Positions 10,405 through 47,813 are shown, counted from the stretch's first letter. The stretch: DNA of 64,000 bases from Candidatus Saccharimonadales bacterium (GCA_041600755.1 JBFIJL010000001.1:56798-120797), one strand, 5' to 3'. The notes: generated by a model from the sequence alone, not told the origin. Numbers and translations: made by a program.

Positions 10405-10578
10405 TTCAGAAACTCACGGGGAATACTTGGGTATATTCTGCTTAAGCTGCGAGTGAGCGAGCTCCCTCGGTCTTGCCTGAATATCGACCCCTCGTTCGCT
10501 ATGCTCACTTATTTCGGGGTTCGCTTCCGCCAGGCAATACAAAGAAAAATAGACCAGCATTAGCTGATCTATTTTTCT
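10405..10578 (-). repeat. tRNA-Glu downstream segment. It begins with a 12-nt partial copy of the tRNA-Glu T-arm/acceptor 3' strand (ctcacggggaat) and ends with the tRNA terminator.
   Basis: ctcacggggaat at 10410-10421 matches tRNA-Glu 10586-10597 and is followed by gtatattctgc, a motif shared with the tRNA-Arg segment at 33485-33598 (tRNA-Gly segment at 39674-39727 has the variant ggtattctc). Terminator hairpin tagaccagc-att-agctgatcta plus T-run abuts the tRNA 3' end. Confidence 0.4.
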
Positions 10579-10653
10579 TGGTGATCTCACGGGGAATCGA
10601 ACCCCGATTGCCAGGATGAAAACCTGGTGTCCTAACCGTTAGACGATGAGACC
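10579..10653 (-). tRNA. tRNA-Glu (anticodon TTC)
   Basis: Revcomp GGTCTCATCGTCTAACGGTTAGGACACCAGGTTTTCATCCTGGCAATCGGGGTTCGATTCCCCGTGAGATCACCA: cloverleaf folds, anticodon loop TTTTCAT, CCA encoded. Confidence 0.85.
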
Positions 10654-32938: not shown

Positions 32939-33465
32939 CAGACAAGCTCGATTAATTCAACAACTTGTCGCATGCGGTGATTGTCGTCAGGAAACATATC
33001 AATAAGTCCAACTGACTTTAGCGTAAACTGTTCACCCTCTTGGACGCGCCCGCTACGCTGAGCAGTCACATGGGGAGTATTATTTTCACCTGTGTAATGA
33101 GACTCAACAAACTTTATGCCTAGAGGCAAGAAACTGTTGATGACTGCTTGGTGCTGGAACAGTAAGTCCTCGTTGGCTTCAACAAGATTCGCTCGTGTTG
33201 CTCCCCATACTACCTCGTGGGACGCAACACGTTTGCGCCGTATGTTGAATTTGATGTCTCGAAATACTTCAATAACTTCTGGGGCTTCAGCATCAACGCC
33301 AAATGCCGGCGCAATCGTACAGTGCAGCGGCCATTCGCTTGCAAGAAACAACGATCCTTTTGCTGTACGGTCAATAAATCCAACGATACACCATTTTTGT
33401 GAATAGGCAGTCATGCTCTTAATAATAACAAAACTCAACCATTGGTTGAGTTCAATTTGGTGCAC
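32938..33465 (-). CDS. 2H phosphoesterase superfamily protein (LigT-like 2'-5' RNA ligase / cyclic phosphodiesterase)
   Basis: Two H-x-T-x motifs (PLHCTIAPAF and TPHVTAQRS) spaced as in LigT/2H enzymes. Confidence 0.6.
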   Translation of the reverse strand: MHQIELNQWLSFVIIKSMTAYSQKWCIVGFIDRTAKGSLFLASEWPLHCTIAPAFGVDAEAPEVIEVFRDIKFNIRRKRVASHEVVWGATRANLVEANEDLLFQHQAVINSFLPLGIKFVESHYTGENNTPHVTAQRSGRVQEGEQFTLKSVGLIDMFPDDNHRMRQVVELIELV

Positions 33466-33484
33466 CCGGTAGGATTACATAGTA
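33466..33484 (-). repeat. Partial direct copy (19 nt) of the tRNA-Arg(TCG) 3' end, located 115 bp downstream of the gene
   Basis: tggtgcacccggtaggatt is identical to 33599-33617; the copy boundary falls in the T-loop. Confidence 0.75.
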
Positions 33485-33598
33485 TATTCTGCCCGTATTG
33501 CCTGTAAATTCAGGCGGGAGAATATCGAACCTTGACGGTTCGACTTGCCTAGGCAAGTAAACCAAGTAAAATACCCATCCAAAGATGGGCACTTTACT
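33485..33598 (-). repeat. tRNA-Arg downstream segment between the 3'-end copies (contains the tRNA terminator and the shared motif gtatattctgc)
   Basis: Terminator cccatc-caaag-atggg + T-run abuts the tRNA; segment also has gtattgcctg, which appears inverted in the tRNA-Glu segment. Confidence 0.45.
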
Positions 33599-33675
33599 TG
33601 GTGCACCCGGTAGGATTCGAACCTACGACACCTGGTTCCGAAGACCAGTGCTCTAATCCGCTGAGCTACGGGTGC
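33599..33675 (-). tRNA. tRNA-Arg (anticodon TCG)
   Basis: Revcomp GCACCCGTAGCTCAGCGGATTAGAGCACTGGTCTTCGGAACCAGGTGTCGTAGGTTCGAATCCTACCGGGTGCACCA; anticodon loop CTTCGGA. Confidence 0.85.
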
Positions 33676-39653: not shown

Positions 39654-39672
39654 TGGTGCGGGTGGAGAGAAT
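39654..39672 (-). repeat. Partial direct copy (19 nt) of the tRNA-Gly 3' end, 55 bp downstream of the gene
   Basis: tggtgcgggtggagagaat is identical to 39728-39746; boundary again in the T-loop; followed by ggtattctc (related to gtatattctgc in the Arg/Glu segments). Confidence 0.75.
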
Positions 39673-39727
39673 ACTTTGGTATTCTCATTCCCTTACAGAA
39701 AATATTCAAGTGAACTTGACTGCTTTC

Positions 39728-39802
39728 TGGTGCGGGTGGAGAGAATCGAACTCTCGTTTCCAGCTTGGAAGGCTAGCATATTAACCACTATAAGACACCC
39801 GC
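39728..39802 (-). tRNA. tRNA-Gly (anticodon TCC)
   Basis: Revcomp GCGGGTGTCTTATAGTGGTTAATATGCTAGCCTTCCAAGCTGGAAACGAGAGTTCGATTCTCTCCACCCGCACCA; anticodon loop CTTCCAA. Confidence 0.75.
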
Positions 39803-41436: not shown

Positions 41437-41985
41437 ATGAACAAATACCAACTCTCCAACAAAGAACTTCCTGCAAGCTTTCGTATTGATAGAGCCAGGG
41501 AGAGTGACTTCTCAGAATTCATGCAAGTATATGAAAAGTCTTTTAGAGATGCATACGAAACTAAAGAAGTTCCAATTAGCCAACTTCATCATAGTCACTT
41601 TATTAAATCTAACATCTCCGAACAGATTCACAATGCATTTTTTGGAGTCAATTCAATTAGTGATTTTGCATATGTCAATGATCGTGTAATCGGTGGTATT
41701 TCTACAACCTGGATTCCTAAAATGCAGGCTGTGGAGCTGCACGGGCTATACATTGACCCTGCCTATCAAAAGCTTGGAGTCGGGACGCAGTTACTGATTC
41801 GTCAATTGAGAATTAATAGCTCCAGACGAATATATCTTGATGTTGCAAAATCATTTAAATTCCAGCAGATCATGTACGAAAACTATGGATTTAAAAAACA
41901 AATCATTGGGGGAAATAAATCATTTTCATGGCCTTCTTGGTCGAGCGAATACAAAATAAAGACTATTAGGATGTGGAAGAAATGA
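41437..41985 (+). CDS. GNAT family N-acetyltransferase
   Basis: Motif A ...LYIDPAYQKLGVGTQLL... Confidence 0.65.
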   Translation: MNKYQLSNKELPASFRIDRARESDFSEFMQVYEKSFRDAYETKEVPISQLHHSHFIKSNISEQIHNAFFGVNSISDFAYVNDRVIGGISTTWIPKMQAVELHGLYIDPAYQKLGVGTQLLIRQLRINSSRRIYLDVAKSFKFQQIMYENYGFKKQIIGGNKSFSWPSWSSEYKIKTIRMWKK

Positions 41986-42737
41986 CCAAGTGGAATTCAG
42001 TTTTTGAAATAAGTGCAGGTCTTGAAGGTCTTGAAAGAATGCCTAATAAACTTGTGGAATCGTCGAGTACGATAAAACTTCCTATAATGCTACTGGTTCT
42101 TGAAAAGATTGATTCAGGAAAGCTGCATTATTGGTCGCGATTCAAAATTTATCAACGACATTTTTCAAGTGGATCAGGCATCTTAAACTGGATGAACAAA
42201 AAATCAATCTCTGTCTTTGAGGCTCTACGCTTAATTGCAAAATATAGTGATTGTGTAGCAACAAACGTCTTAATAGATTACCTGGGTGGAGCAAAACAAA
42301 TTAATAAACAAATGGCTGATCGAGGCTATAAAACAAGATTACATATGGACGTTCTCGATTTCGAAGAAGATGATGAATCGATGCCTCATATTGGCACCAC
42401 TAGTGCGCACGAAATGATGGAATTAATGCAAGATGTATTCGAGCGCACTAAACGCAGAGACAAGCTGGCGGTTCGTTTAATATTCAGAAATATAGACACG
42501 TCTTGGTTTGAACTCGGACTAGGAAAAGATATACCCTCCCTGTACCACAAGACTGGTTCAATGATCGCTGTAGGCCCAACAAAAGATACAGTATTTAACG
42601 TTGTAGGTGTAGTAGACGGTTCTCCAAGAGTTTATTTTGCCTATCTTAGCAGGGGTCATCTAACAGAAACTACAACTGCAAACGAGCAAAAATCGGAACT
42701 TGCGAACGAACTATGGAGCTTGATCGAGCGCTTGTGA
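41973..42737 (+). CDS. Class A beta-lactamase-like serine hydrolase
   Basis: S-x-x-K (SSTIKLPIML) and KTG (YHKTGS) motifs in the correct order/spacing; lacks an obvious signal peptide. Confidence 0.55.
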   Translation: MEEMTKWNSVFEISAGLEGLERMPNKLVESSSTIKLPIMLLVLEKIDSGKLHYWSRFKIYQRHFSSGSGILNWMNKKSISVFEALRLIAKYSDCVATNVLIDYLGGAKQINKQMADRGYKTRLHMDVLDFEEDDESMPHIGTTSAHEMMELMQDVFERTKRRDKLAVRLIFRNIDTSWFELGLGKDIPSLYHKTGSMIAVGPTKDTVFNVVGVVDGSPRVYFAYLSRGHLTETTTANEQKSELANELWSLIERL

Positions 42738-42786: not shown

Positions 42787-42803
42787 TTGGTCGGGGTGAG
42801 AGG
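42787..42803 (-). repeat. Partial direct copy (17 nt) of the tRNA-Pro 3' end (outer copy)
   Basis: ttggtcggggtgagagg is identical to 47667-47683 (the same sequence at the tRNA-Pro 3' end). Confidence 0.7.
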
Positions 42804-42950
42804 GATCGCTAGAGTACTCACACTTCAGCTTCCCTGCGCTCGAGGCCAAGCAAGGAAAACTCAATATGCCACAGGCATATTTCGCCTGTCGGTTCGAGTC
42901 CCTAAACTCAAAGCAAATAAAAATACACAGACATATGCCTGTGTATTTTT
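42804..42950 (-). repeat. Ancestral tRNA-Pro downstream segment, now displaced; its internal ~50 nt are homologous to tmRNA downstream segment 70-184
   Basis: ctcgaggccaagcaaggaaaactcaatatgccacaggcatatttcgcc matches ctcgcaggacaagcaaggaaaactcaaatagccgctggctattttcgcc at 112-160. Palindromic terminator acacagacatatgcctgtgt + T-run abuts the 10-nt tRNA-end copy at 42951-42960. Confidence 0.5.
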
Positions 42951-43252
42951 ATTGGTCGGGTCAGAACGACACTCAGCGAACCTACCTACAAGCCAGCCTT
43001 TATGGGATTTTGCGAAACCATCAACAATTTAGGGATAAGGTCGAGAAGCTACAACGCATTGTCGATAACGCCGTAAAGCCAGAGGGCTTGGAGCTTATCA
43101 AGTTCGTGTAGCGTATAATGTAGATAATATGAGCGACGCCGACGAAACCAAAGAAAACGCAATGCTTCAAGAAAGTGAAGTTGTAGAGTTGCCACCGCAA
43201 CAATCAGCGACCGATACGAGCAACTGGGACAATAAAGTCTTTACTGACCCAA

Positions 43253-44530
43253 GTGGTGAAAAGTATATCCGAACTCTACCTAACGAAGATAGCGAATAGT
43301 CATAACGGGTACAATTTTATGCCAACTATTGACCAGCAGATTGCACAAGAAGAAGCACGAATAAAAAGTACTCTTGGAAACTTCTCTTCAATTATTACCA
43401 ACGCCCAAAAATCTACTAAAGAGAGCCATAATTACAAAATCCTTACAATTCAATTTGATGAGTGTAGGCTTGTTGCCTACGTTCTTGAACACTTGCTGAA
43501 TTGCAAAACAGCTTGGCTTCCTATAGAGAAAGTTCATTGGTGGTCTAGCTTCTCGTACGACGGAGTATACTGTTCAATTGCTCATCAAAAGTTCGGATTT
43601 AATTTGTATATCTCTGGTGGACTAAATAAAAACGATGCTGACAAGTTAGCTAAAAAGTTAATAGCTGAGTTAGAGACAATCGTTGCAACGCTAAGCAAAG
43701 TTACGACGCTCTATGCGAAAAAAGCCGTGAAGGTTGGTAATATCATCCTTCACAATAAGATGCAAAGCCTTGAGGATAGGTACGTATATTATCGTGATGC
43801 TAGCTTTGTTGAGCTTGATACCAAAGCAGAACTTGACAGTATAATGGGCGAAAATGATGGAGAAGTCGTTGAGTTGGGTGTACACGACGAAAAAGACGAC
43901 AAGGACTTAGACAAGAAAGTAGTCGAGACTATGGAGCGTCTTGCTGTATATAGGCGAAAATCGAGTGTTCATCTCTATAATCAGGAGGTTGCAATCATAT
44001 ACTTCTTGAGCTTGGTTGAGCACATATGCCTACTTCTTTATGCGTTTAATCACGATGGAGGCAGTGTAGTTGATTTAGCGATGAAGGGTTGGGGCGAAAA
44101 GTTTGAAAAGGTTATTGGTACTGCGGATAAAGATATTGAAGAGGGGTATCTGTATCTAAGGAAAGTCGCCCTATATAAACGAAACCCTATCACTCACGGC
44201 TTCTTAACTCCTAAGATGACCGAAGCGAGCTTCTACTTTAAGCCAGCACGGCAACGGACGCCAATAAACTTATTTGATGGAGAGCTTTTGGGTGAATATG
44301 GCTACGAGGTAGATTTAGCAAAACTTGACAAGCTACTGGCAGATATAAGGAAAAGTCCGAAGTTTCACAACGCTATGCGCTATATAGGAAATAGTGAGTT
44401 TGATATTAGCTATGATACTGGCAGTATGGCAGAGTTTGAATTAGTGAATAAGATGACCGAAGGCGATTTAGTGGAATACCTCGATGCAGTATCGTGGAGA
44501 TATAATAACGCCGCTAATATGGACTGGTAA
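43253..44530 (+). CDS. Hypothetical island cargo protein (425 aa)
   Basis: Long clean ORF, AT-rich, no recognisable catalytic motif; preceded by ~290 bp non-coding. Confidence 0.5.
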   Translation: MVKSISELYLTKIANSHNGYNFMPTIDQQIAQEEARIKSTLGNFSSIITNAQKSTKESHNYKILTIQFDECRLVAYVLEHLLNCKTAWLPIEKVHWWSSFSYDGVYCSIAHQKFGFNLYISGGLNKNDADKLAKKLIAELETIVATLSKVTTLYAKKAVKVGNIILHNKMQSLEDRYVYYRDASFVELDTKAELDSIMGENDGEVVELGVHDEKDDKDLDKKVVETMERLAVYRRKSSVHLYNQEVAIIYFLSLVEHICLLLYAFNHDGGSVVDLAMKGWGEKFEKVIGTADKDIEEGYLYLRKVALYKRNPITHGFLTPKMTEASFYFKPARQRTPINLFDGELLGEYGYEVDLAKLDKLLADIRKSPKFHNAMRYIGNSEFDISYDTGSMAEFELVNKMTEGDLVEYLDAVSWRYNNAANMDW

Positions 44531-44739
44531 GCCCCCACCCATCGAACACGTCATTTTAGAAAAGCTTGTAAACGCACTTGTAGGCTAAAAATACGTCAGT
44601 GACAAAAAATGGTTTGTTTTGCCGTTTTACCCAACAATTATGAACAGAGGTCGGAGTTAAAAAATCGCCCAACAAACCAGAAGAACAGTAACAGGGGTGG
44701 ACTGTTGGCTACTTACAAAATCTGTTGGGAATAAAAGAT

Positions 44740-45402
44740 TTAGTTCTTGATGAGATGCTTCGTAAATCCGTTTTCCACAAGAACATTAAAGGACTGCCAA
44801 ACACTCTCTGGAATATCCTGTTCAATCTGAAAGCCTAGTGATGGAAAGACTTTAATACGCTGTAAGTCACCAACCATAATGTTTATAAACTGTTCTTTAG
44901 AGCTACTATCGGTTAACATATCGTCATAGCTGAGAGCAGGAGACGTGACGATAACCTCAGTGGAGCTATCTGACCATTGCTTCTTAAATGTTGCATATGC
45001 CCTACGCTCCATATAGGGTTTTGTAACGATAATTAAAGACTTGGGCTGTACGCTTTTACTGTCGAGTAGTTCTTGTGTAAATCGAATATTTTCACCTGTG
45101 TTTGTAGACTTTTCCTCGATAAGGATTTTATCTTCAGACACTCCATTGCCGATAGCAATATCCCTAAATAATTCTGCCTCAGTCGTATTGTTGCTGTGCT
45201 GGGTTATCTTGCCGTAACCACCCGAAAATATAAGCAAATCACTATAACCATCAAGAAAGAGTTGGCTCGCTCGCTCGGCAACCCTGCTTTCTGATGAACC
45301 TAGCCCTAATATTACATCGGCTTTCTCAATCGGCATATTGAGTAGCATATAGTCGAATACGACTTTTGCGTGCTCGTCTACGTTCATTAAATCTCTTTCC
45401 AA
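44740..45402 (-). CDS. DUF218 (YdcF/ElyC-like) domain protein
   Basis: ...VILGLGSSESRVAERASQLFLDGYSDLLIFSGGYG...EKSTNTGENIRFTQELL matches the DUF218 core. Confidence 0.55.
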   Translation of the reverse strand: MERDLMNVDEHAKVVFDYMLLNMPIEKADVILGLGSSESRVAERASQLFLDGYSDLLIFSGGYGKITQHSNNTTEAELFRDIAIGNGVSEDKILIEEKSTNTGENIRFTQELLDSKSVQPKSLIIVTKPYMERRAYATFKKQWSDSSTEVIVTSPALSYDDMLTDSSSKEQFINIMVGDLQRIKVFPSLGFQIEQDIPESVWQSFNVLVENGFTKHLIKN

Positions 45403-45803
45403 AAGCAGGTGTAATCACTGCCCTTAGTAAAGCCCAATTGGTTATATCGACTATCTAAGTCGGCATTTCCTACTGGCGTGTAGACTAGCACTTGAGAGTG
45501 ACCACGACCCCTTAGAACCTCTACGGCTTTATCGTGGAGAGCTTTGGTTACGTCTCCGTTTGCTAGATGTACAGCAAAACGAAATAGCCAAGCAACACGA
45601 CCATCGTCGACAAGAGATACAGTGCCCACAATCTTTTCGTCTTCAACAGCAACAAGGATTGCATCGGTGTCTACTTCAATCTTTTTTCTAAGTCTGTCGC
45701 TAGCGTCACGCGCTTCGTCGAACTGACCACCAAGCGTATCGCTATCTAAGTAGAGAGCTTTGAGTTGCTCGTAATCAGATGGCTCGTAACTCCTTATAAT
45801 CAT
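45387..45803 (-). CDS. GNAT family acetyltransferase
   Basis: 138 aa, ...ILVAVEDEKIVGTVSLV...RGRGHSQVL... acetyl-CoA-binding-like motif; 16-nt overlap with the DUF218 gene. Confidence 0.5.
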   Translation of the reverse strand: MIIRSYEPSDYEQLKALYLDSDTLGGQFDEARDASDRLRKKIEVDTDAILVAVEDEKIVGTVSLVDDGRVAWLFRFAVHLANGDVTKALHDKAVEVLRGRGHSQVLVYTPVGNADLDSRYNQLGFTKGSDYTCFWKEI

Positions 45804-45850
45804 AGTTTTATTATATACCAGAAAACCGTTGAACCTATTTACAAGCTATA

Positions 45851-47679
45851 ATGATGGACAGTATGGCTACAGGAGATAAGAAAACCAGAACACGCAAGAA
45901 GCAAGTGCTTGTACCGCTTAGTGATAAGCAGTTGAAGCAAGCCGAGAGTGTAGTAGCCGAAAGCCTAAAAGATAACCCTGAACTGTTCAACCTGCCAGAG
46001 AGTAGATACACGGTTGAGGGTCTCGTAGACTTCTACGTGCAGTCGATAGCGGGTAGCAGAAAGATACTACCTAAAGAGAAACGACGCTATGTAGTCTACT
46101 TACGTAAATCCACTGATGACGAACGTAAACAAGTGAGGTCGATTGACGACCAGAGAAAAGAGTGCCTAGATTTAGCCAAGAGGCTTGATATTAAAGTACG
46201 ACCTGAGGATATTTTCGAGGAAAGACAGTCGGCAAAAATCTCTGGCAAACGTGACATATTCAATGACATTATGGAGGGTTTTGAGAGAGGTAAATATCAC
46301 GGTTAAATCTCGTGGTCACCTGACCGATTGTCACGCAATATGTTAGGGGTGGCCAGATTATCGAGCACGTAGATTACGAGAAGATACAGGATTTACTATT
46401 CTGCACTTACGCTTTCGACAACACACTAAACGGCAAAATGATGCTTGGTATTTTGTTTGCTACGTCAAAGCAATATAGCGACAAACTAGCGGTTGATGTG
46501 GCTCGTGGCATTACAGGTGCTATCCACGAGGGCAAGTATGTTGGTCTAGTCAAAAAGGGCTACTATGCTGACACTGACAATGGACGGTTTATGCCAGACG
46601 GCGTACATTGGCAGTTATTACGCCAAGCCGTTGTTATGCGACTAAAAGACCGCAAGACCAATCAAGAGATAGCAGACTTCTTAAACGCCTCAAACTTTAG
46701 CTTTCGCAAAAGCCAAGATGACCCCTACAAAAAAGCAAAAATGGACAAAAAGACAGTTGCAACAATGTTTGCCGACCCCTTTTACACGGGTGCTTACAAG
46801 TATGGCGATAACATAGCCAACCTAAAAGACACCTATAACTTTTTGCCCCTGATGACACCCGACGAGTTTATAGCGTTAAGCAAGAATATGTCGGATAGTT
46901 TCAATAAAGAGTTTGTTGGTCGCAGTAACGTTGCTAAACGGCTAGATTTCGGATTGCTTCGAGAAAAGGTTATTTGCGACTATTGCGATAAACCGATGGG
47001 CTTCCAGAGGACAAAGATACCAAGAGGCAAAAACCAAGGTCGCTATATGATAAGTTTCTATTGCCGAGATAATGGTCAGGGCTGTCTACGTCATAATAAC
47101 GAAGAAGCTATAAAACAGTACGGAAAGAAGCTCAGCAAGAGTGTTAGGCTCAAAGATATAACGCCACACATCGCTTGGACGATACAGAACTGCACTAAAG
47201 ACAGCAAGAAAGCCTACGACTACTACATTGAACGTCTGAAAAGTGAGGTTGCCGTTAAACGTGAGACTGCTAAACGCAAGCTGGCTGATGCTAAAAAAGA
47301 AGTTGCTAAGCAAGAAGAGATGCTAGCCCAGTATCAGAACTTTCAAGTAAAGCACCCTGAAGATTATCAGAAGTACCACAAGAATAAGCTAGAGGAGCAT
47401 CAACAACTCCTTGATGTACATAGTGTAAGTGTCTCTAAACTAGAGAAAGAACTCGAAAAACTCAAACAAGATTTACCAACCCGCAAAGAGTTTGCTGAAC
47501 TCGTCCAATCGTATCTGTTAATACTACGTACAACCCGTGATTTGGTGGAAGAGGACGAAGTGTACAAAGAGATGGTGTTGAACCTGCGTGTTAGGGACGA
47601 CTCCGCCCCTGTTATAAAGCTAAATCCACCATACGATATGATGGTGGATTTTAGCGAAAATACTTCTTGGTCGGGGTGA
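45851..47679 (+). pseudogene. Large serine recombinase (integrase) disrupted by an in-frame TAA (46304-46306) and a frameshift (~46335-46365)
   Basis: N-terminal YVVYLRKSTDDERKQVRSIDDQ (catalytic Ser region); after the TAA the same frame continues ISWSPDRLSRN (resolvase DRLxR motif). A different frame then reads GGQIIEHVDYEKIQD...MMLGILFATSKQYSDKLAVDVARG, followed by the recombinase domain and Cys zinc ribbon (CDYCDKPMG...FYCRDNGQGC) and a coiled coil. Last codons TSWSG* are encoded by the tRNA-Pro 3' end. Confidence 0.6.
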
Positions 47680-47742
47680 GAGGACTCGAACCTCCGACCT
47701 CACGGTCCCAAACCGCGCGCGCTAGCCAACTGCGCCACACCC
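47668..47742 (-). tRNA. tRNA-Pro (anticodon TGG)
   Basis: Revcomp CGGGGTGTGGCGCAGTTGGCTAGCGCGCGCGGTTTGGGACCGTGAGGTCGGAGGTTCGAGTCCTCTCACCCCGACCA; anticodon loop TTTGGGA. Confidence 0.85.
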
Positions 47743-47813
47743 CGTTAGTCTAGTGGCTTTTGCCACTAGAAAACTTACAGTATTATAACAGAAATTATTG
47801 TACTGACCAGTGT

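Follow-up and report, generated by a model that had tools for sequence, protein, structure and literature searches.

A small integrative element at tRNA-Pro of a Candidatus Saccharimonadales bacterium, with a probable attachment site inside its large serine recombinase gene

We analysed a stretch of 64,000 nucleotides from a Candidatus Saccharimonadales bacterium (GCA_041600755.1 JBFIJL010000001.1:56798-120797), referred to below as the window, in which an earlier note had proposed an island of about 4.7 kb at tRNA-Pro, nested beside an older tRNA-end scar. Positions 42961-47666 very probably represent a small integrative element of a Saccharibacteria family mobilised by a large serine recombinase (LSR). 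In this family the attachment site of the free element (attP) lies inside the open reading frame (ORF) of the recombinase itself, so that integration would truncate the protein by its last 49 amino acids. Neither this arrangement nor the damage to the recombinase gene of the window is mentioned in the earlier note. The element family is widespread in Saccharibacteria, with several hundred members; its elements are 3-11 kb long and carry no phage or conjugation genes.

Results

Island boundaries at tRNA-Pro

The gene for tRNA-Pro(tgg) lies at 47668-47744 on the minus strand (ARAGORN; Rfam tRNA, 63.2 bits), and its 3' end reads TTGGTCGGGGTGAGAGG on the plus strand. A 9-bp core, TTGGTCGGG, is present on the plus strand at both ends of the island, at 47667-47675, where the recombinase 3' end meets the tRNA, and at 42952-42960, where the old tRNA terminator meets the island. 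It was found that this 9-mer occurs three times in the 64 kb, each time at one of the sites in question, when 0.14 occurrences are expected from shuffles. The short repeat of the tRNA end had been described before as 10 nt at 42951-42960; the repeat is present, but it measures 9 nt, the tenth base beside the left copy being T and not G. Its contact with a terminator is as claimed. The strong AT-rich hairpin at 42916-42953 has 19-bp arms that are 95% complementary and folds at -20 kcal/mol on the tRNA strand (z = -6.4); it would be the pre-insertion tRNA-Pro terminator and the left arm of the chromosomal site (attB), and related islands likewise adjoin a terminator. The second, exact copy of 17 nt of the tRNA-Pro 3' end was also recovered farther out, at 42787-42803, where it extends to 20/22 (shuffle expectation 0.05 for matches allowing up to 3 mismatches).

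The left end of the island is fixed at the core 42952-42960 and not at the 17-nt repeat by independent comparisons with a sister island, with a contig of joined ends, with other Saccharibacteria contigs and with the tail of recombinases encoded on circular elements. The sister island L038, a 4.4 kb contig that holds the whole island with an intact recombinase and a 425-aa gene 94% identical to that of the window, is homologous to the window from exactly 42953, with 88% identity up to 44536. The metagenome contig L074 is colinear with the reconstructed 47675|42961 junction (86% over 446 nt), and it carries the two island ends fused, that is, the attP form. The nested model of the earlier note holds: the island is real, and its 4.7 kb were inserted between tRNA-Pro and the terminator that formerly followed it. 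On L003, L006 and L008, which are contigs of other Saccharibacteria, a homologous recombinase also runs into tRNA-Pro, and a copy of TGGTCGG followed by a conserved ORF is found 3.8-6.2 kb away. The core TGGTCG(G) is present at both junctions in about 35 related islands. The empty site is predicted to read ...GTGTATTTTTA-TTGGTCGGG-GTGAGAGGACTCGAACC..., with 42960 joined to 47676.

The description of the island as AT-rich is only weakly true because the gap is small (42.1% GC against 44.9 +/- 1.2% for same-size segments elsewhere), which is marginal. A foreign composition is nevertheless well supported because the tetranucleotide distance of the island, 0.246, is a clear outlier against 0.143 +/- 0.015 for same-size segments elsewhere (maximum 0.171).

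Geometry of the attachment sites

The shared core is 6-10 bp long in about 35 islands, with 9 bp in the window, and each core consists of the CCA end and the first acceptor-stem bases of its tRNA: TGGTCG(G) at tRNA-Pro, TGGTGG at Val and TGGCTG at Gln. In all distinct attP right arms (39/39), GAACC(T) starts 25 bp from TGG regardless of the reading frame and of the surrounding coding sequence, while the T-loop GAACC of the tRNAs starts at 20 bp, and this 5-bp difference was found in 32/34 islands. In the window, the heptamer CGAACCT lies in the attP right arm at 42977-42983 (plus strand), 25 bp from the first T of the core, and the same heptamer lies in the tRNA at 47687-47693, 20 bp from that T. 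The attB-derived arm of the right junction is the tRNA-Pro 3' end itself (47668-47744), with CCA and the start of the acceptor stem. For a Listeria integrase, the motif of the zinc-ribbon domain (ZD) is located 5 bp nearer the center in attB than in attP (PMC3783163). The geometry observed here fits this ZD-motif shift of the large serine integrases, and the short shared core of 7-9 bp is as expected for a serine integrase and not the long identity block of a tyrosine-type enzyme.

The conserved left part of attP is a hairpin within the recombinase 3' end (AAATCCACCAT...ATGGTGGATTT; 47622-47651, minus strand). It lies in coding sequence (...LNPPYDMMVDF...), folds at -26.5 kcal/mol (z = -4.2) and receives a terminator-like call at 47644-47626 on the minus strand. 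The hairpin is kept in L001 and L074, and functionally in L013. After integration it stands about 20 nt downstream of tRNA-Pro on the tRNA strand, in place of the terminator that was displaced by 4.7 kb.

A separate observation concerns L013 (10852-12586), a Saccharibacteria genome syntenic with the window, with a YmdB-like gene beside tRNA-Pro. There, a more distant serine recombinase of 571 aa also reads antisense into tRNA-Pro, and a coding hairpin doubles as a terminator directly after the tRNA.

Recombinase gene across the attachment site

The recombinase gene, most probably now a pseudogene, occupies 45851-47679 on the plus strand. The serine recombinase named in the earlier note is an LSR with the Pfam domains Resolvase and Recombinase, and its C-terminus is encoded by the tRNA end as that note had read, with the stop codon TGA at 47677-47679 inside the tRNA. 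The catalytic domain PF00239 was matched on 45851-46303 with 24.7 bits (cut-off 23.3), and PF07508 on 46348-47676 with 27 bits (cut-off 21.1), the latter match being precomputed for most homologues. In the recombinase alignment the YLRKSTDD...Q motif is invariant, and so are four cysteines (C373, C376, C402 and C407 of the homologue P0094). The AlphaFold2 (AF2) model of P0094 shows beta strands at 371-401 and then long helices at 447-555, which form a long helical hairpin. Pfam Zn_ribbon_recom was not matched in the recombinase; the conserved cysteines and the model together point to a zinc ribbon with an inserted coiled coil.

The recombinase has more than 400 homologues, most of them 603-607 aa long, and most end in ...NTSWSG with a stop in the tRNA or continue through the antisense tRNA. 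In addition, 80 metagenome loci were fetched; in nearly all of them the recombinase 3' end adjoins an antisense tRNA, which is Pro in most cases (tgg, cgg, ggg) and Gln, Val or Leu in some. Unlike most homologues, P0093 (651 aa) and P0094 (652 aa) run on into a tail whose sequence is matched at the far end of the window's island. This displaced recombinase 3' end is located at 42953-43111 on the plus strand and consists of a core-encoded W-S-G, a tail of 49 codons (QNDTQRTY...PEGLELIKFV) and a stop; the frame of W-S-G is kept by the 49 codons, which occupy 42962-43108 behind the left core. The similarity of the window tail to full-length P0094 across the junction has a BLASTP E value of 3e-9, and that of the tail alone to P0093 one of 5e-4.

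Among the 41 islands in which both junctions were found, the frame of the tail is that of the recombinase across the shared core in 38, while one third would be expected by chance; in the other three a spurious core had been chosen by the script. The pairwise ratio of nonsynonymous to synonymous substitution rates (dN/dS) of the tail is 0.03-0.35. Because of this frame continuity and these dN/dS values, the tail is read as a translated part of the recombinase that is joined to its gene only in the circular form. In the AF2 model of P0094, which has a predicted local distance difference test score (pLDDT) of 78, the junction falls in a disordered linker (residues 596-621), and therefore the split would fall where a change of sequence is tolerated.

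In L091/L092 (5256-6778) and L044 (5599-11812), the recombinase 3' end is joined to another attP-type arm and not to a tRNA, with GAACC at +25 on both sides of the junction. The elements may be arranged in tandem or nested there, or two elements may have recombined.

Circular and attP-form relatives

Two different circles can be assembled from permuted contigs. L001 and L002 are permuted contigs of 4680 nt with 127-nt terminal overlaps, giving a circle of 4,553 bp, and carry P0094. The permuted contigs L119-L122 come from several samples and carry P0093; the 127-nt overlap of L120 gives a circle of 6,904 bp. Four independent attP-form molecules (L001/L073, L075, L100 and L119-L122) have the tail in frame, and the reconstructed attP is intact in L074, L001, L075 and L100. 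The circles carry HTH_31 and HTH_23-like proteins, a GIY-YIG nuclease and proteins of no assigned kind, and in the 6.9 kb circle an HTH_17 excisionase-like gene lies just upstream of the recombinase.

A 56-aa ORF at 43129-43299 (plus strand), always just downstream of the tail, is a core gene of the family. A tblastn search placed it directly behind the tail in most of the related islands, and in all circular or attP-form contigs that were checked; the ORF in this position is 55-92 aa long in most islands and in every circle. It has no match in Pfam, PHROG or PADLOC. The 56-aa protein is a candidate for an accessory or directionality factor, and both this ORF and the HTH_17 gene are only candidates for the latter function.

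State of the copy in the window

The recombinase of the window is most probably a pseudogene and the island immobilised, because the gene contains a nonsense codon and a 1-nt deletion. When compared with four intact homologues, which have TTA or TTG at this codon, the window has an in-frame TAA at 46304-46306, and near 46346 TTAGAGGGTGG has become TTAG-GGGTGG. Both lesions are located just after the catalytic domain. In addition, Leu replaces the invariant Pro193. Damaged recombinase genes were found in several integrated copies of the family, that of the window included.

The gene is also a mosaic. Residues 1-370 and 591-608 are 93-100% identical to P0001, whereas residues 371-590 (46960-47620), which comprise the zinc ribbon and the coiled coil, are 96% identical to P0024 and only 51% to P0001. 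The latter part would thus come from another lineage by a natural domain swap, and the swapped domain is the one that reads the outer att motifs and controls directionality.

Cargo

The earlier note had listed a DUF218 protein, a GNAT protein and an uncharacterised 425-aa protein as the island's cargo, and this list is correct: Pfam matches the first two and gives no match for the 425-aa ORF. The DUF218 protein is encoded at 44740-45402 on the minus strand (PF02698, E = 1e-22) and has no PADLOC or PHROGs match, and the GNAT acetyltransferase at 45387-45803 on the minus strand (PF00583; PHROG acetyltransferase). Neither of the two occurs in any other sampled island. The third protein is encoded at 43319-44530 on the plus strand with 403 aa, or with 425 aa when read from the GTG at 43253. 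It appears to have an N-terminal alpha/beta domain and a C-terminal HEPN-like helical domain with an invariant RNPxxHG (Rx4H) motif, and only seven homologues were found in 5.8 billion sequences. The 425-aa protein has no match in Pfam (lenient thresholds included), PADLOC or PHROGs, and a profile search of its family against PDB gave none. It is predicted to be an RNase or a protein of abortive infection, and probably is a nuclease of HEPN type, although no hidden Markov model supports this.

Across the 35 non-redundant islands, the cargo located between tail and recombinase includes AAA_15/AAA_21 ATPases (Gabija, OLD and PARIS-like in PADLOC), ThsB-TIR, SMODS with AGS_C, DNA methylases and restriction enzymes, and further HNH, MazG, NUDIX and RNase_T proteins and a recurrent HTH_23 protein. 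The family cargo is largely made up of anti-phage defence genes.

Scar beside the island

The stretch 42787-42951 is a structure separate from the island. The scar itself (42787-42915) consists of the 17-nt copy of the tRNA-Pro 3' end and a structured segment of 112 nt; the nesting, and the decay of the tRNA-end copy in related loci, suggest that it is older than the island. A paralogue of the 112-nt segment (about 75-80% over 75 nt) is found downstream of the tmRNA gene; there a copy of the tmRNA 3' end bounds it, and no island is attached. L008 has the same scar layout beside its island. The order of tRNA, terminator, segment and 3'-end copy was noticed earlier at other genes of the window and is indeed present at tmRNA (1-602), tRNA-Arg(tcg) (33458-33675) and tRNA-Gly (39654-39802), and partly at tRNA-Glu (10413-10653). 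In these scars a terminator is followed by a segment of 55-120 nt and then by an exact copy of 17-19 nt of the gene's own 3' end; at tmRNA the repeat is 57 nt, terminator included. The segments at Glu, Arg and Gly have CAGAATATAC..GTA in common, beside the copy. Identity halts at the T-loop in every scar, and this pattern is that of T-loop crossover islands, not that of the window's recombinase. Such scars are rare in the fetched Saccharibacteria loci, where they were found in 1 of about 100 other tRNA contexts.

The motif common to the Pro and tmRNA scars (42863-42881; 120-160 on the minus strand) contains a small hairpin with compensatory changes (ATATGCC..GGCATAT versus AATAGCC..GGCTATT). 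After the hairpin comes TTGAGTTTTCC, which resembles a terminator when read on the tRNA strand. At least eight other loci have, next to their islands, a related module of about 190 nt that contains a long conserved palindrome, for example directly to the left of the islands at L008:7022-7216, L041:4830-5025, L043:3397-3585, L048:3199-3389, L101:3528-3718, L006:5437-5633 and L066:5938-6137. In order, it consists of a decaying tRNA-Pro 3'-end copy (..GAAAGGAC), ATCG, small hairpins, the palindrome and a terminator, and the palindrome CCAAACCTTCGAC...GTCGAAGGTTT shows compensatory changes in its inner stem. Rfam, at permissive thresholds, assigned no family to either the Pro or the tmRNA scar. 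An 18-mer common to both scars gave three IMG/VR matches with no extended similarity and was attributed to chance. Two other origins of the segment were considered and rejected: against a decayed tRNA-Pro copy stands the paralogue at the tmRNA gene, and against a remnant of an LSR attachment site, the absence of GAACC at +25. The scars may have been left behind by tRNA-integrating elements of a different class, or be miniature derivatives of these.

Beyond the scar, the left flank at 41437-42737 contains a GNAT gene and a class-A beta-lactamase-like gene and has 38.4% GC, which is below the island; this flank may itself be acquired DNA. A further island candidate at tRNA-Lys, with a 10-nt match 2.6 kb downstream, was dropped as a chance match.

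Discussion

Weighing of the evidence

Several points weigh against reading 42961-47666 as an element whose recombinase gene is divided by integration. All the evidence is comparative and recombination was not observed; that it takes place at these sites, and that the tail-less enzyme is still able to excise, we infer from the comparisons above. The frames of recombinase and tail are offset by one base in L074 (1280-1600), which among the attP-form contigs is closest to the element of the window; in this molecule the tail would not simply extend the translated recombinase. The tail of L074 has a dN/dS of 0.05 against the window, indicating strong purifying selection, and a frameshifted variant, recoding and a chimeric assembly are all conceivable causes of the offset. 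The 5-bp shift covers the tRNA-side arm only, and in the AF2 model the tail is a single long helix (609-651) with a low pLDDT of 31-65, whose contacts are not shown. A replication gene was not recognised in either circle, 4,553 or 6,904 bp, which leaves both excision products and episomes as accounts of them. Also, no close genome with an empty site was found, because in the nearest ones, which were reached by way of the YmdB-like flank, the identity of the flanking protein is only about 55%. Exact-sequence look-ups of two flanking proteins and a metagenome scan for the terminator and core junction gave no match. In L012, tRNA-Pro is directly followed by a terminator, but this genome was set aside as an empty site for being too distant.

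Other readings of the same data have been considered. If the 17-nt repeats (42787-42803 and 47667-47683) bounded a single element of 4.9 kb, the 9-nt match would be internal or due to chance. Such a repeat is exact and highly non-random, and tRNA-integrating islands typically show identity blocks of this length reaching the T-loop; however, the homology of L038 begins at 42953 and not at 42804, L074 in the attP form joins 47675 to 42961, in about 35 related islands the end is at the short core, with an in-frame tail behind it, the segment 42804-42915 has an island-free paralogue at tmRNA, and no tyrosine integrase was found in the island with Pfam. We consider the 4.9 kb element exceedingly improbable. 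It is also very unlikely that the tail is an independent small gene or a non-coding attP arm, with the read-through in P0093 and P0094 an accident. The one-base offset in L074 would be explained in that way, as would the length of 603-607 aa of most database homologues and the varied C-termini of the integrated state, some of which stop in the tRNA while others read on through it in antisense. The frame continuity far exceeds the third expected by chance, though, and it holds in the four independent attP-form molecules; the tail has no start codon of its own, and in L074 a stop five codons upstream of the core closes the frame; moreover, conservation at the protein level, with many synonymous changes, reaches 40 codons past the attachment arm of about 30 bp.

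Two more readings concern mobility. That the element of the window is still active, the TAA and the 1-nt deletion being sequencing or assembly errors, is unlikely. The deletion turns GAGGG into GGGG, a homopolymer context, and the tail, the 56-aa ORF and the cargo are intact with perfect core repeats; but the two lesions are independent and lie within 45 nt, TTA or TTG to TAA is not a typical homopolymer error, and the Leu stands at a Pro that is invariant in the aligned homologues. A somewhat better chance, still a low one, is given to the view that the family consists of small plasmids that integrate occasionally, its chromosomal islands being dead ends, since two different circles were assembled, one of them in several samples, and several integrated copies have damaged LSR genes. 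Against it, no replication initiator was recognised in either circle, and in most integrated copies the LSR, about 600 aa long, is still intact, as is the tail at the other end, under purifying selection; this is hard to explain unless integrated copies return to the circle. The reading as an integrative element that is mobilised by its LSR is the one that we retain.

Comparison with known systems

By sequence and by site, the recombinase appears to be a large serine integrase. With the large serine integrases of phages and integrative and conjugative elements (phiC31, Bxb1, Listeria A118/LI, SPbeta SprA) it has in common the architecture of Resolvase, Recombinase and zinc ribbon with coiled coil, the few bases shared by the att sites around the crossover and an outer motif 5 bp further out in attP than in attB. 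It differs from them in that attB is a tRNA 3' end, in that attP lies inside the integrase ORF so that integration changes the protein, and in the size of the elements (3-11 kb) with no phage or conjugation genes. No LSR in the annotated collections of phages and plasmids is more than 26% identical to the recombinase, its only PDB sequence match is to a catalytic domain (E = 2e-4), and IMG/VR holds no relative of it. We found no literature description of these elements, or of an attP inside a serine integrase gene. In a survey of 2020, tRNA use by serine integrases was recorded for 14/297, and it was called unreported and in need of proof (PMC7192596).

The nearest parallels for the divided gene come from tyrosine recombinases. 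As a first comparison, our family resembles the SSV1-type systems in the attP inside the integrase ORF, the tRNA-gene target and the split gene in the integrated state. Viruses and plasmids of this archaeal type integrate at a tRNA gene through an attP within the integrase ORF and partition the gene; their enzymes are archaeal tyrosine recombinases whose split yields two large fragments. The window's enzyme, in contrast, is a bacterial serine recombinase of Saccharibacteria hosts, and it would lose only the last 49 residues behind a disordered linker, with the catalytic and DNA-binding domains staying together. In the integration-dependent immunity of mycobacteriophages attributed to Broussard et al. 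2013, attP reportedly lies inside the repressor gene, and a tyrosine integrase removes a degradation tag. Recombination in a coding sequence there also removes a C-terminus, so that free and integrated isoforms differ, but the family described here would remodel the recombinase itself and not a repressor.

Recombinases of the phiRSM type target a tRNA gene, and the likeness lies in the serine-family recombinase and the short core at the tRNA 3' end. They are found in filamentous Ralstonia phages; these enzymes are of resolvase size, without Recombinase, zinc-ribbon or coiled-coil domains, and a split of the recombinase is not described for them. The 2020 survey lists them as a clade of site-specific small serine integrases (PMC7192596). 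Classical tRNA islands of tyrosine integrases share with ours the tRNA 3' end, the direct repeats and the accessory or defence cargo. Unlike them, the window's island has no Phage_integrase match among its ORFs, a serine recombinase beside the tRNA and a repeat of only 9 bp, with the crossover at the CCA/acceptor end and not in the T-loop. It is the neighbouring 17-nt scar that has the identity block of the classical islands, from the T-loop to CCA.

Proposed mechanism

In the free circle, attP would lie within the 3' end of the LSR gene and comprise the hairpin, a core of 7-9 bp (TGGTCGG) and the GAACCT arm. The junction of the tRNA-Pro 3' end with its terminator would serve as attB, the tRNA supplying the core and the T-loop GAACC 20 bp out, and the 5-bp offset of GAACC would let the LSR tell attB from attP. 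Recombination in the core would keep the tRNA intact, put the hairpin of the LSR gene where the terminator was, and carry the last 49 LSR codons, with the 56-aa gene, over to the island's opposite end. Once integrated, the element would encode a tail-less LSR (ending in ...SWSG), and the circle would encode the full-length one. The copy in the window, with its HEPN-like, DUF218 and GNAT genes, would later have lost its recombinase and become fixed in place.

A role of the tail or of the 56-aa protein in directionality may follow from this arrangement. We put forward as a tentative and rather doubtful extension that the full-length LSR of the circle favours integration through its C-terminal helix, possibly together with the 56-aa protein, by tuning the coiled coil; that the tail-less form differs in directionality; and that the clade reads the near-universal CCA end and the T-loop GAACC. 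If true, this would be a self-rewiring serine integrase for which a separately regulated directionality factor is not needed, the reading of CCA and T-loop GAACC would explain the hops between Pro, Gln, Val and Leu, and a potentially programmable landing-pad system would be at hand for Saccharibacteria and beyond.

Significance

Serine integrases are valued tools of genome engineering, and the control of their directionality is an active question. The clade described here systematically takes tRNA 3' ends as attB, a use that the 2020 survey deemed unreported for large serine integrases. With attP in its own gene, the recombinase would have two natural isoforms tied to the state of the element, and this offers an experiment on the C-terminal extension and directionality. 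The copy in the window is a decayed example whose value is that of an entry point to the family. These elements would also be the first defined integrative vehicles found for Saccharibacteria, a group with few genetic tools, and they appear to move anti-phage defence genes among ultra-small episymbionts.

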